7,631 nt of DNA, from the IMG/VR virus record IMGVR_UViG_2531839585_000017; one strand, 5' to 3'. Both the position numbers and the translations under genes were made by a program. The notes beneath the pieces were generated by a model. It had not been told where the DNA came from and did no database searches. It was given only the letters and a program-made list of their open reading frames with translations. Positions 2,720-7,631 of this stretch are shown one piece after another. This stretch comes from a virus. Its lineage: Duplodnaviria > Heunggongvirae > Uroviricota > Caudoviricetes. Every line of letters begins with the position of its first letter. The stretch's first letter is position 1.

Positions 2720-2821
2720 AATCCCCCCTGTTGCGTCTGCCAAAAATATTCACAAAATAAAGCGCTACCCGAAGCCGGACGGACTTATCCGGTGCTGTAT
2801 GGACATTAACGAGGTAGCCCG

Positions 2822-3088
2822 ATGCAAGCTGTTTTTTCTTCCCCGTCTCCCGCCCCTGTGACGCCACTGATGCCGCTGCCGGACATCACGCAGGAGCGTT
2901 TTTTACGTCTGCCGGAAGTGATGCACCTGTGCGGCCTGTCACGCTCGACCATCTACGAACTCATCCGTAAGGGGGAATTTCCGCCGCAGGTGAGTCTTGG
3001 CGGTAAAAATGTGGCCTGGCTGCACTCTGAAGTCACCGCATGGATGGCCGGACGCATTGCCGGACGCAAACGGGGGTACGACGCATGA
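2822..3088 (+). CDS. vis: AlpA-family (excisionase-like HTH) phage regulatory protein; positional equivalent of P4 Vis
   Basis: Intact 88-aa ORF with SD GAGG (2811..2814) 7 nt before the ATG. The core …[51 protein letters not shown]… is the typical AlpA/Xis-type helix-turn-helix. Its 88 aa and position between the PLL-like and PLE-like promoters fit P4 vis as I recall it. An internal ATG at 2870 is an alternative start. Confidence 0.8.
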
Positions 3089-3123
3089 TGATGCCCGCTC
3101 TGCAAAAACTCCCTTTTTCTGGC

Positions 3124-3153
3124 TTGCCTTTTTCCGGCATTTGCGGATATAGT
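3124..3153 (+). promoter_or_regulatory. Candidate sigma70 promoter (PLE-like) for the immunity/replication operon
   Basis: TTGCCT (3124..3129), 18-bp spacer, TATAGT (3148..3153). About 400 bp downstream of the PLL-like element, as recalled for P4 PLL/PLE. Sequence-only prediction. Confidence 0.3.
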
Positions 3154-3157
3154 TTTT

Positions 3158-3450
3158 CCGCTGCCGCAAAATCGGCAGCCGGGCGTGAGAACCCGAGTAA
3201 TTCAAAGGCGACATATGACGCGCCATGCGTCTTTTTTTGTGTCGCAATCAACGCCACAGAGCGCCAGATTATGGTGTGGCGTGTGGTTTGCCGTGCAGGT
3301 ATGATCCTGTTCGCAATCGCATGTTATGCCACTGAGTCAATGGTAGCTCAGGCGGGGCAGCCTCCGGGCTGGCCGGTATCCTTTGAGGCCGGTATTCTCA
3401 CCCCCGTCTGGGCTATCGCCATCGAGCGTGAGAACTCCGGCGATAGCGTT
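3158..3450 (+). promoter_or_regulatory. Structured leader with short direct and complementary repeats and two terminator-like hairpins; candidate CI-RNA-type immunity region
   Basis: Hairpin 3160..3179 at the predicted 5' end. Direct repeat GCGTGAGAAC at 3183..3192 and 3426..3435. Partially complementary element gtattctcaccc at 3392..3403 (8 of 10 pairing with the repeat core). Hairpin gacgc/gcgtc plus T7 at 3217..3238. 9-bp stem hairpin 3412..3420 / 3439..3447 with the second repeat in its loop, followed by a T-rich tail. Confidence 0.3.
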
Positions 3451-3473
3451 ATTTCGCTTTACGGAGGTGCCTT

Positions 3474-3581
3474 ATGGCTACACCCTTACCCCCTCACACC
3501 CTGAATTTGTCTTTGTGTTTGCGGCTGTCCGTCGCGCAGACCGTCATCCCCGTATCTGATGCTTCGCACCGTCGCCGGTGA
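3474..3581 (+). CDS. Small ORF (35 codons as read) with strong SD; possibly the 5' part of a frameshifted small gene of about 65 codons
   Basis: GGAGG (3463..3467), 6-nt spacer, ATG 3474, encoding [35 protein letters not shown]. Overlapping frames continue as protein-like sequence (…[29 protein letters not shown]) to a double stop TAATAA at 3667..3672. The true frame and extent cannot be resolved without a reference. Confidence 0.25.
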
Positions 3582-3661
3582 TGAACGCAGCGCCCGCCGT
3601 TCCCTTGTCCGTGACTATGTGCTCTCCCTTGCTGCCCGTCTGCCGGTGGTGGAGGTGTCCC

Positions 3662-3948
3662 GTGCGTAATAAAAAAGCCCCTCAGACCGTCTCAGCCGTC
3701 ATGACGCCCGTGAACACCTCAGCATTGAGGCTTACCATAAGCTCAACCGCGCCAGCGCCGTATCCCAGTTTGTTGGGGGTGATTTGATTCACCGTGAACT
3801 CTCCGGCCTGCATCAGCTCTACATTCCGCATATTTTCAGCTACCTGAATGAAGATATTGATTTTGTGCTGAATGAGCTGAAAGCCAAAGGCCTGTGCCGC
3901 GATTTTCTCGCCCAGCAGAAAGACCGGGGAGACAGGACGCATGTTTGA
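3662..3948 (+). pseudogene. Epsilon-position gene (hypothetical protein immediately upstream of orf151); frame and start uncertain, apparently interrupted
   Basis: A protein-like frame (…EAYHKLNRASAVSQFVGGDLIHRELSGLHQLYIPHIFSYLNEDIDFVLNELKAKGLCRDFLAQQKDRGDRTHV*) ends at 3948, overlapping the orf151 ATG (ATGTTTGA), but has no ATG after the stops at 3667..3672. Candidate starts GTG 3662 or ATG 3701 are in the adjacent frame, so a -1 frameshift is implied. GTG 3662 plus one deletion would give 95 codons, the length I recall for P4 epsilon. Positional assignment only. Confidence 0.35.
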
Positions 3949-7226: not shown

Positions 7227-7240
7227 ATCCCTGAATCCCC

Positions 7241-7540
7241 CGAAGGTGAACAATCCACTGTTCACCCTTCACCGTATATTCACCCGTTATCACACTGAAA
7301 TTAAAAGAGAAAAACGAAAGGTGAACAGTGTGAACAATCAAATCAAAAAAAACTTTTTTCTTCCTGAGTGATTTCAGTGCGGAGGATTAATCACCGGTAT
7401 GAGTCACACCGGCAGAATGCCGGAGGTGAAGAATCGAATGTTCACCCTTCACCCATTATTCACCACCTATCACTCTGAAATAAAAGGAGAAAACAGAAAG
7501 GTGAACAGTGTGAACAGTTCTTTCGAAAAAAAATTTTTTA
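7241..7540. repeat. crr-like cis replication region: two ~120-bp direct repeats, 180 bp start to start, each carrying type-I iterons in both orientations
   Basis: Repeat 1 about 7241..7360 and repeat 2 about 7421..7540 align at roughly 85% identity by eye. Iterons GGTGAACA 7245..7252, TGTTCACC 7259..7266, GGTGAACA 7320..7327, TGTGAACA 7329..7336, and the same set in repeat 2 (TGTTCACC 7439..7446, GGTGAACA 7500..7507, TGTGAACA 7509..7516). This matches my recollection of P4 crr (two 120-bp direct repeats separated by about 60 bp). Confidence 0.6.
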
Positions 7541-7560
7541 TGTGGATAAAAGATGCACTG

Positions 7561-7587
7561 GTTTGGATCCGAGCTACGGATCCAAAC
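7561..7587. repeat. Perfect 11-bp inverted repeat with 5-nt loop (gtttggatccg-agcta-cggatccaaac) distal to crr; function unknown
   Basis: Seen directly. Contains two GGATCC hexamers. No T-run on either side, so not a classical intrinsic terminator. Followed by AT-rich sequence to the window end. Confidence 0.4.
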
Positions 7588-7631
7588 TTACTGATTAAAA
7601 ATGATTTAACTTTCCGATTTATTGATGGGCT

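Follow-up and report, generated by a model that had tools for sequence, protein, structure and literature searches.

The leader that lies downstream of vis in this caudoviral DNA raises the question whether an RNA-based switch like the immunity system of phage P4 is encoded there, or whether its repeated and partially complementary sequences have another origin. The window, the whole stretch of DNA analysed, has a length of 7,631 nucleotides, and the region in question spans positions 3158-3450. What best explains its sequence is, very probably, the region by which a P4-type satellite prophage controls immunity, or lysogeny maintenance. The system is already known, being the well-studied P4 RNA immunity switch, and this copy is ordinary save for the loss of one of four pairing sites.

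Identity of the locus

Alignment of positions 2800-3700 with P4 gives 94.9% identity, and base-for-base agreement extends over the PLE promoter, hairpins I and II, seqA, the terminator t1, seqB, seqC and the CI core. Together with three Rfam matches, this upholds the P4-like RNA immunity switch proposed in a first-pass annotation. By sequence comparison, region 3158-3450 is an orthologue of the P4 immunity region and not a mere resemblance, the same locus by descent with the shared gene order vis, leader, kil/eta, epsilon, orf151, cnr and alpha. Differences from P4 include a 9-nt indel and clustered substitutions in the spacer 3290-3335. Equally, the whole window shares 98.8% identity with E. 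coli P4-like elements whose annotation includes the satellite core genes, and the core set of P4-like satellites is present in its order, with psu, delta and sid, then ori, then vis, the leader, kil-eta, epsilon, orf151, cnr and alpha, and finally crr; both the ori iterons and the crr repeats were found in the window. The integrase lies beyond the window. Directly 5' of the leader, the list of open reading frames holds vis (2822..3088, + strand), an AlpA-family excisionase and regulator of 88 aa, which aligns to P4 ORF88, labelled 'excisionase and transcriptional regulator', and is described as an HTH regulator in the E. coli relatives.

The Rfam matches all exceed their gathering score, lie on the + strand and follow the expected order; they concern isrK, c4-a1b1 and C4 antisense RNA. 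The isrK family (RF01394) covers a short leader RNA, the seqA RNA, at 3160..3237 (+ strand) with 72.9 bits (gathering score 50), and the c4-a1b1 target motif (RF03163) covers 3147-3199 (+ strand) with 50.8 bits against 46.7. The search for P4 CI-type families that the first-pass annotation had suggested was successful, with C4 antisense RNA (RF01695; 76.0 bits against 45, E 5e-14, model positions 1-87) marking the CI RNA gene at 3336..3423 (+ strand). The order of isrK and then C4 recurs in 11 of 13 P4-like loci from different genera, and CI was found at 76 places in the P4-like loci examined.

Related RNAs occur beyond the satellites. The c4 antisense RNA of P1 and P7 belongs to the common families RF01695 and RF03163 and is likewise a cloverleaf embedded in its own target transcript, with targets 5' and 3' of the RNA gene and a downstream operon that opens with an Icd-like gene; the operon controlled in P1/P7 encodes an antirepressor (ant), whereas satellite replication functions are concerned here. 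The complementarity of c4 consists of two parts, and its downstream site covers a ribosome-binding site. Furthermore, phiKO2, PY54 and Klebsiella N15-like phages match the CI part (window 3340-3447) at 76-88% identity, and in one of these phages an 'Icd-like' CDS overlies the matching stretch. N15, phiKO2 and PY54 are temperate linear plasmid-prophages, not satellites, and the RNA core alone is similar, while leader and downstream genes mostly are not.

PGAP draws a single CDS across the entire leader in over 1000 E. coli genomes. P4 records equally hold a 137-aa CDS termed 'cI gene product' or 'transcriptional repressor', and an ORF at 3040-3504 is present in the window. These annotations would fit a protein-coding region, expressing either a long 'Icd-like protein', with a length of 196 aa in relatives, or the 'cI' ORF known historically from P4, with the repeats as by-products of codon conservation, a reading which has very little probability. 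The Icd-like HMM (NCBIfam NF033153) covers only residues 143-190 of the 196-aa CDS of an intact relative, which is the kil/eta part, and matches neither the window ORF 3040-3504 nor the frameshifted kil; ORF 3040-3504 is without any family match. Moreover, the frame is not conserved, with a 4-nt length difference before kil and a spacer between t1 and CI that cannot be aligned between genera, its length varying by about 39-45 nt, and the variation present is of the RNA type, with compensatory change at paired positions. The protein-coding reading was therefore rejected on HMM coverage and the unconserved frame, and no conserved protein frame, which the first-pass annotation had considered as a competing account, explains the region.

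The leader, the CI RNA and their complementary sites

A promoter scan identified PLE (3124..3153, + strand) as TTGCCT, an 18-nt spacer and TATAGT, identical to P4, with the -10 element TATAGT (3148-3153) mapping on the '-10 consensus' feature of P4 record X02534. The leader RNA that follows is predicted to fold into hairpin I (3160-3179), a 4-bp hairpin II (3180-3195) and the terminator hairpin (3217-3238), and the isrK-family helices are 99.8-100% paired in 70 relatives. The 10-mer GCGTGAGAAC is, as first noticed, exactly repeated, its only two occurrences being 3183-3192 and 3426-3435, both on the + strand. Its first copy constitutes seqA or site a1 (3183..3192, + strand; core GUGAGAA at 3185-3191). 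This copy had been placed just after a 5' hairpin, which is correct as to position after hairpin I, but its actual location is the loop of another hairpin, hairpin II. The other copy, seqC or site a2 (3426..3435, + strand; core 3428-3434), is indeed found in the loop of a hairpin with a 9-bp stem (3412..3447, + strand), built from GCTATCGCC (3412-3420) and GGCGATAGC (3439-3447). In 70 related leaders this stem is 99.2% paired, and 3 of its pairs show change on both sides.

Between the repeats, the described partial complement was recovered as ATTCTCACCC at 3394-3403, which agrees with the complement of GCGTGAGAAC in 8 of its 10 positions, including a contiguous stretch of 7. It contains seqB or site a' (UUCUCAC; 3395..3401, + strand), the exact complement of the GUGAGAA core and so of 3185-3191 and 3428-3434, which places targets on both sides of the CI gene. 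The pairing that had been regarded as short and imperfect represents the a part only; a second, b part, by which 3380-3387 pairs with 3201-3208, had been missed. In this second part, site b' (CCUUUGAG; 3380..3387, + strand) occupies the loop of CI hairpin 2, and site b1 (UUCAAAGG; 3201..3208, + strand) is complementary to that loop, with a 7-nt exact complement at the fixed offset seen in 73 loci and an RNAduplex energy of -8.8 kcal/mol, a duplex strength that ranks 71st of 73.

A chance origin of the 10-mer repeat and its partial complement in a GC-rich leader has a practically negligible probability. When one mismatch is permitted, two or more matches to the 10-mer arise in 25 of 200 shuffles, which renders that test uninformative. 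On the other hand, the core GTGAGAA has 5 occurrences on both strands against 0.68 expected, a count reached by 0 of 200 shuffles, and on the + strand it is restricted to the two GCGTGAGAAC sites. The three sites are furthermore fixed in position and change together in six specificity types among 70 loci. From the window alone, chance is not fully excludable; judged from the sequences of relatives, it is excluded by conservation and three-way covariation.

The mature CI RNA is predicted to be about 80 nt in length, with estimated ends at approximately 3341 and 3421. A small RNA had been expected at 3380..3450, and the Rfam match (3336-3423) moves it to this upstream position. In P4, CI is processed by RNase P and PNPase. 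The architecture of CI comprises a 17-bp closing stem, two hairpins, a single-stranded bulge carrying the antisense sequence and a 3' CCA, and the CCA (3419-3421) together with the acceptor-like 17-bp stem would resemble a substrate of RNase P. C4 precursors are among the known RNase P substrates (PMC2190699), and by analogy c4 of P1/P7 and the CI found here may be likened to each other in this respect. Folded on its own, the 3341-3421 RNA adopts a cloverleaf as its minimum free energy structure (-49.3 kcal/mol, z -4.96), and seqB is unpaired in this fold as well as in the Rfam consensus. Among 70 homologues, pairing at its 27 base pairs amounts to 99.8%, with compensatory change in 7 of them and slid controls at 28-52%, and compared with P4 the RNA is identical except for 2 loop bases. 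The stretch 3412-3418 serves both as 5' arm of the seqC hairpin and as 3' arm of the stem that closes CI, so that either fold excludes the other.

The P4 leader has been described with the terminators t1, t4 and timm and with the details of kil and eta. A terminator scan of the region finds one terminator, t1 (3217..3238, + strand), with the stem at 3217-3231 and a T7 run at 3232-3238, and thereby agrees with the hairpin and T7 noted beforehand. Two terminator-like hairpins had been proposed; this first one stands, while the second (3412-3447) is followed by GUUAUUUCGCUUU without a clean U run and is not a canonical intrinsic terminator. The t1 stem is 100% paired in 70 relatives, including one G-C/C-G swap in 16 sequences, and its T7 run is invariant in 70 leaders. 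When a1 and b1 are blocked in silico, the t1 hairpin becomes more probable, at 0.95 instead of 0.72, a modest and purely computed shift. For a GGCG/CGCC antiterminator candidate 5' of t1, whose bases are invariant and so lack covariation, this modest shift is the only result. A stem enclosing t1 (3208-3213 with 3240-3245) was not kept as a part, being 83% paired with little covariation.

Covariation among related leaders and a proposed mechanism

The covariation survey covered 70 P4-like leaders, drawn from about 30 enterobacterial genera, with a and b sites defined by the covariation itself, so that these labels may not map one-to-one on the a/b nomenclature of P1. Across the 70 leaders seqB co-varies with both seqA and seqC in six a specificity types, and about 15 types are found for the b specificity. 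The upstream pairing (a1:a' and b1:b') reaches 99.5%, against 36-49% in slid controls, and 12 of its 15 pairs show change on both sides; the downstream pairing (a':a2 and b':b2) is 99.0% paired, again with 12 of 15 pairs compensatory, and seqC is 100% paired with seqB. Cognate duplexes are stronger than non-cognate ones by 5-7 kcal/mol. The pattern of repeat and complement is hence conserved and co-varying in related satellites, where the first-pass annotation had advised to look for it. The element analysed here shares the a-type specificity of P4 (GUGAGAA/UUCUCAC) and departs from it in the b part, in which the CI hairpin-2 loop is CCUGUGAA in P4 and CCUUUGAG here, differing in two bases, and b1 is UUCACAGG in P4 and UUCAAAGG here, a change that matches the one in the loop. 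Also in comparison with relatives, b' and b1 of this element differ in a mutually compensating manner.

These observations, namely the P4 identity, the RNA folds, the four complementarities and the covariation in relatives, all of them derived from sequence, are consistent with a mechanism well studied in P4. Processing of an untranslated transcript gives rise to the P4 CI RNA, whose pairing with seqA and seqC leads to premature termination (PMC4825925), and IsrK and C4 are structural homologues of seqA and CI (PMC3632133). In the element at hand, the constitutive PLE would start transcription at about 3160 and produce a leader with, in order, hairpin I, hairpin II with seqA/a1, b1, t1, the spacer, CI, the seqC/a2 hairpin and b2 at the kil ribosome-binding site, followed by kil/eta, epsilon, orf151, cnr and the alpha primase gene. 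CI, as a cloverleaf of about 80 nt, would be excised from its own leader transcript, and its bulge (a') and hairpin-2 loop (b') would pair antiparallel with a1 and b1 and with a2 and b2 on new leader transcripts. Pairing at a1/b1 may favour a stop at t1, yielding a short IsrK-like RNA and limiting CI synthesis. Pairing at a2/b2 would occlude the kil start, upon which the untranslated RNA would terminate early and the replication genes would remain silent, a link between b2 and kil that is presumed.

The short leader RNA (3160-3237) might, besides or instead of being a target of CI, act in trans like IsrK of Salmonella Gifsy-1, binding to the read-through transcript and turning on translation of kil as the first downstream ORF. 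The leader matches the isrK family with the score given above, IsrK has been called a structural homologue of the P4 seqA RNA with STnc1160 suggested in the role of CI, and the short IsrK of Gifsy-1 acts as a translational activator of the read-through isoform, with the AntQ antiterminator as the outcome (PMC4825925). Furthermore, IsrK-like elements of P4-like prophages are required in S. Typhi according to TraDIS (PMC3632133). Hfq binding and trans-activation of the read-through isoform are features described for Gifsy-1 IsrK only, and a1/b1 and a2/b2 are direct repeats of each other, so that mutual pairing is impossible. CI pairing moreover fully accounts for the covariation. A trans-acting role is quite unlikely.

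A mismatched site before kil

The one pairing site lost in this copy is b2, whose position together with the kil Shine-Dalgarno sequence (GGAGG, 3463-3467) spans 3455..3467 (+ strand). It is a perfect UUCACAGGA in P4, whereas here it is degenerate (CGCTTTACGG) and non-cognate to the CI of this element, for which CUCAAAGGA would be cognate. With -6.3 kcal/mol its RNAduplex value is the weakest of 73 and equals the non-cognate mean. In 69 of 70 relatives b2 is matched to b'; the site in relatives abuts the kil ribosome-binding site. Alignment with the closest relatives reveals four bases missing in 22 nt of the b2 segment (3448-3470), and this segment found no match in viral or metagenome contigs and none in complete E. 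coli genomes, where the nearest sequence has 88.6% identity with a 4-nt gap; equally, the b' loop is unmatched in both contig collections, viral and metagenome. The b2 lesion may be a real divergence or a sequence error. Downstream, kil (3474..3581, + strand) is frameshifted by single-base deletions, as compared with both P4 and the E. coli relatives, and encodes 35 aa instead of the 65 aa reproduced for Kil from the P4 sequence, while eta (3559..3669, + strand; 36 aa), nested in the P4 kil frame, is intact and identical to P4 and corresponds to the part with the Icd-like domain match. A non-cognate b2 and a frameshifted kil make it probable that the switch is weaker in its downstream arm or that the prophage is in decay.

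Decay could extend to the whole locus, with a P4 immunity region by descent that is now a non-functional relic, in which conserved RNA elements reflect recent inheritance only. Such a fate is possible but somewhat unlikely. In its favour, 14 single-base deletions and no insertions separate the window from a 98.8% identical relative, with psu, sid, kil, epsilon, cnr and alpha disrupted, and both the degenerate b2 with its missing bases and the absence of b2 segment and b' loop from viral and metagenome collections point in the same direction. However, PLE, seqA, t1, CI and seqC are without lesion, as in P4, and the mutually compensating changes in b' and b1 argue for selection on the pairing. 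A pattern of deletions only is also typical of assembly errors, so that the frameshifts may be unreal. The copy may thus be non-functional, or its sequence error-prone.

A different, and in its entirety unlikely, interpretation of the b sites is a combinatorial immunity code in P4-like satellites, with seqB (at least six types) and the hairpin-2 loop (about 15) as two independent sites. The a and b specificities would then assort freely and co-resident satellites would differ in at least one site; the present element would be a natural hybrid, whose b' and b1 have together evolved into a type seen nowhere else, with b2 left behind. If the hybrid reading were true, autoregulation of CI at t1 would be uncoupled from the repression of kil and the replication genes.

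As an immunity region of P4 type, the locus adds little that is new to textbook antisense-RNA-controlled premature termination, which is captured by three Rfam families. For genome annotation, it is of relevance that the 196-aa 'Icd-like' CDS annotated over this RNA switch in those E. coli genomes has support for its last approximately 50 residues only. The mismatched kil-proximal site of this element provides a natural test case for the contribution of the second pairing. Equally, the survey of 70 leaders represents a natural compensatory-mutation data set for both pairing elements, which could help to predict cross-immunity among P4-like satellites that carry defence hotspots.

Identity and anatomy of the immunity leader

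As judged from its ORF map and similarity searches, the window is a P4-type satellite prophage from Escherichia coli. Of 5426 complete E. coli genomes, 2390 carry chromosomal elements that match its whole length, with a best identity of 98.8%, and phage P4 (X51522, 8136-9052, reverse strand) is 94.9% identical to positions 2800-3700. The annotated order in a relative reads SIR2 cargo gene, psu, delta, sid, the HTH regulator vis, 'Icd-like protein', epsilon, orf151, DUF5375 (cnr) and the primase alpha; as in P4, four copies of the ori iteron ACTGTTCACC (2438-2543) stand upstream of vis and two crr direct repeats of 120 nt each, 82% identical (7240-7359 and 7420-7539), downstream of alpha. The low-GC positions 1-194 are the 3' end of a cargo gene, which in the 98.8% identical E. 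coli relative encodes a 906-aa SIR2-family protein between int and psu, an interval described as a P4 defence hotspot (Rousset et al. 2022). Different sets of E. coli relatives cover the two window ends (1-201 and 7540-7631), with the top matches ending at 7539 and others beginning at 202, which indicates mosaic flanks; an inverted repeat, GGATCCGAGCTACGGATCC, lies at about 7566-7584.

A first-pass annotation had proposed that the leader at 3158-3450 is an RNA-based immunity switch resembling that of P4, and the elements on which it built are all found where it had placed them. The repeated 10-mer GCGTGAGAAC occurs at 3183-3192 and 3426-3435 and nowhere else in the window, positions 3394-3403 agree with its complement at 8 of 10 positions, a terminator scan gives a stem at 3217-3231 followed by seven T, and the second 10-mer lies inside a 9-bp hairpin (3412-3420/3439-3447). 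Counted over both strands, the repeat core GTGAGAA is present five times, against 0.68 expected, a count reached by none of 200 shuffles; on the + strand it is limited to the two 10-mers, and its exact complement lies at 3395-3401.

The proposed likeness to P4 proves to be orthology. The Rfam comparison that the annotation had suggested gives exactly three matches, all on the + strand and above the curated thresholds: the target motif c4-a1b1 (3147-3199; 50.8 bits, threshold 46.7), isrK, the family of the seqA leader (3160-3237; 72.9 bits, threshold 50), and the C4 antisense RNA, the family of the small RNA CI (3336-3423; 76 bits, threshold 45). IsrK and C4 are structural homologues of the P4 seqA RNA and CI RNA, and CI, cut from the untranslated primary transcript, pairs with seqA upstream and seqC downstream to cause premature termination (PMC4825925; PMC3632133). 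Because all parts of the switch, namely PLE, the two hairpins of the leader, seqA, the terminator, the CI core with its seqB and the hairpin that holds seqC, are identical in the alignment with P4, the relationship goes beyond resemblance.

The PLE promoter (TTGCCT-18-TATAGT, 3124-3153) was located by a promoter scan, its -10 element being an annotated feature of the P4 record X02534, and the leader RNA starts at about 3160. Hairpin I (3160-3179) is followed by hairpin II (3180-3195), with seqA (site a1) in its loop, and, after a short linker, by the intrinsic terminator (3217-3238). The small RNA, previously placed at 3380-3450, is predicted instead at about 3341-3421; folded alone, it adopts the C4 cloverleaf (-49.3 kcal/mol, z -4.96) with a 17-bp closing stem, hairpin 1 (3358-3371), hairpin 2 (3372-3393), the 3' end CCA and a single-stranded bulge, AUUCUCAC, which includes seqB (a'). 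Positions 3412-3418 serve both as 3' arm of the CI closing stem and as 5' arm of the 9-bp seqC hairpin, so the two folds are mutually exclusive in the unprocessed transcript. Display of seqA and seqC (site a2) in hairpin loops would correspond to the usual layout for fast antisense recognition. The spacer between terminator and CI (3239-3335) holds a hairpin at about 3253-3282 (GCCACA...TGTGGC), present as dyad symmetry in an old P4 record, and differs from P4 at 3290-3335 by a 9-nt indel and clustered substitutions.

Covariation of the antisense RNA with its targets

For comparison, 80 P4-like loci were fetched with a C-terminal alpha probe from one-genome-per-species contigs of Citrobacter, Klebsiella, Enterobacter, Raoultella, Edwardsiella, Pantoea, Erwinia, Pectobacterium, Dickeya, Serratia, Yersinia and other genera. 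In 11 of the 13 loci tested, Rfam detects isrK and then C4, the remaining two being L008, whose sequence extends about 1.5 kb upstream from the probe match and stops short of the leader, and L037; an HMM locates CI at 76 places in the relatives' loci. The C4 structure is 99.8% paired over 70 distinct CI sequences, and in 7 of its pairs both partners have changed (slid controls 28-52%). In 70 distinct leaders, pairing likewise reaches 99-100% in hairpins I and II, in the terminator and in the hairpin of seqC; the compensatory changes there include a G-C pair replaced by C-G within the terminator and three pairs of the seqC stem altered on both sides.

The pairing itself covaries. At least six versions of seqB occur, each with its exact 7-nt complement at seqA and seqC alike: UUCUCAC with GUGAGAA, UUCCUAC with GUAGGAA, UUUCCAC with GUGGAAA, ACGCCAA with UUGGCGU, CUGCAAA with UUUGCAG, and CUGCUAA with UUAGCAG. 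A second interaction had been missed by the first-pass annotation: b', in the loop of CI hairpin 2 (3380-3387), is complementary to b1 (3201-3208), about 10 nt 3' of seqA, and in relatives also to the kil-proximal site b2, which extends into the GGAGG ribosome-binding site of kil, the first ORF. About 15 versions of b combine freely with those of a. Upstream (a1:a' with b1:b') 99.5% of positions are paired and downstream (a':a2 with b':b2) 99.0%, and in either case both partners have changed in 12 of 15 pairs; slid controls reach 36-49% and 33-45%, respectively. At all four sites, cognate pairing is much stronger than non-cognate pairing (-14.1 versus -7.6 kcal/mol at a1, -9.5 versus -4.5 at a2, -11.1 versus -4.3 at b1 and -13.1 versus -6.6 at b2). 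Conservation of repeat and complement across related satellites, on which the annotation had made its proposal depend, is thereby borne out.

A protein-coding leader is the reading embodied in existing records, since pipelines annotate a single 196-aa 'Icd-like' CDS across the entire leader and old P4 records a 137-aa 'cI' CDS. The Icd-like HMM matches only residues 143-190, which correspond to the kil/eta part, and the window ORF 3040-3504 matches no family in an HMM scan. Furthermore, the reading frame is not kept among P4, the E. coli relatives and the window, and the terminator-CI spacer, which cannot be aligned between genera, exceeds that of other genera by about 39-45 nt in the P4/E. 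coli group. The changes observed are of the RNA kind, and the protein reading is rejected; the conserved frame that the first reading had named as speaking against a switch is absent. The observation made there is thus confirmed and its interpretation, with the small RNA repositioned, supported. The 196-aa RefSeq/PGAP 'host cell division inhibitor Icd-like protein', seen at L003 6089-6679, L084 246-836 and in more than 1000 E. coli genomes, spans PLE, seqA, terminator, CI RNA and seqC and looks like a systematic over-extension over non-coding RNAs.

Regulatory model and specificity of co-resident satellites

The best-supported account of the switch is the P4 model, in which PLE transcripts would give rise to CI, whose a' and b' would pair with a1/b1 and a2/b2 on further transcripts. 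Upstream pairing would favour termination at 3217-3238; in silico, the terminator-hairpin probability rises from 0.72 to 0.95 when a1 and b1 are unavailable, a modest predicted effect that is only suggestive. Downstream pairing would cover the kil start, and the satellite would be quiescent because the untranslated RNA would end ahead of epsilon, orf151, cnr and alpha. A terminator that depends on CI, t1, reportedly lies between PLE and cI and has a part in CI autoregulation, and a further terminator, t4, is said to lie between cI and the Rho-dependent timm. Translation of the nested kil (65 aa) and eta reportedly prevents termination at timm; consistent with this, a Kil of 65 aa and an Eta of 36 aa are encoded in the P4 sequence where they would be expected. 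CI is also said to be processed by RNase P and PNPase. C4 precursors are RNase P substrates (PMC2190699), which is consistent with such processing.

The two elements of E. coli 504237 (L003, L085) have b in common and differ in a, and among the three of Enterobacter chuandaensis a or b is common pairwise, L013 and L027 sharing the a site only and L013 and L042 the b site only. Co-resident satellites thus differ in seqB type, hairpin-2 loop type or both and are never the same in both, in a set of pairs too small for statistics. In Mangrovibacter yixingensis, the upstream targets of L043 (40-326; a1 GUAGGAA, b1 CUCAAUGG) fit the CI of the co-resident L044 (40-332) and not its own, whereas its downstream targets fit its own CI, a hybrid that suggests recombination or cross-regulation between co-resident satellites. 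One contig, L024, carries two P4-like immunity modules 6.9 kb apart (533-620 and 7474-7561), whose seqB differ by one base (CUGCUAA and CUGCAAA), compensated at seqA and seqC in both. The modular a-by-b specificity across genera and the co-resident differences, by-products of checking a known system, may already be covered by the older literature.

The window copy within the P4 system

The locus belongs to the P4 CI/seqA/seqC system, a kind that is already known, with P1/P7 c4, Gifsy-1 IsrK/STnc1160 and the C4-like RNAs of N15-type phages as kin, and all sequence-testable defining features are present except the second pairing element at the downstream target. Both b' and b1 differ from P4 and the closest E. 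coli relatives and yet remain complementary, CCUUUGAG to UUCAAAGG with a single G-U pair, at -8.8 kcal/mol (rank 71st of 73). At the b2 position, CGCUUUACGG pairs with the window's own CI at -6.3 kcal/mol, which is the weakest value among 73 and the same as the mean of non-cognate pairings. Since, relative to GTCATTTACGCTGTTATCGGAGGTTGCC of the nearest relatives (L003, L004), positions 3448-3470 lack four single bases and carry one substitution, this b2 looks like a damaged site of the relatives' type and not one of the type fitting its own CI. Neither the b2 segment nor the b' loop has a match in viral or metagenome contigs; among complete E. coli genomes, the nearest b2 segment is 88.6% identical with a 4-nt gap, and none exceeds 96.2% identity over 3140-3480.

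Compared with the 98.8% identical relative in E. coli 504237, the window has 14 single-base deletions (743, 1966, 1986, 2675, 3481, 3558, 3696, 4643, 5374, 5436, 5458, 5527, 5672 and 7344) and no insertion. These split psu, sid, epsilon, cnr (DUF5375), alpha and kil, the last reduced from 65 to 35 aa, and leave eta, vis, delta and orf151 intact. On the sequence, the deletions may be either genuine mutations that create pseudogenes or assembly errors of the deletion type. In the former case, the window would represent a decaying prophage in which the RNA switch is intact upstream and weakened at the kil site.
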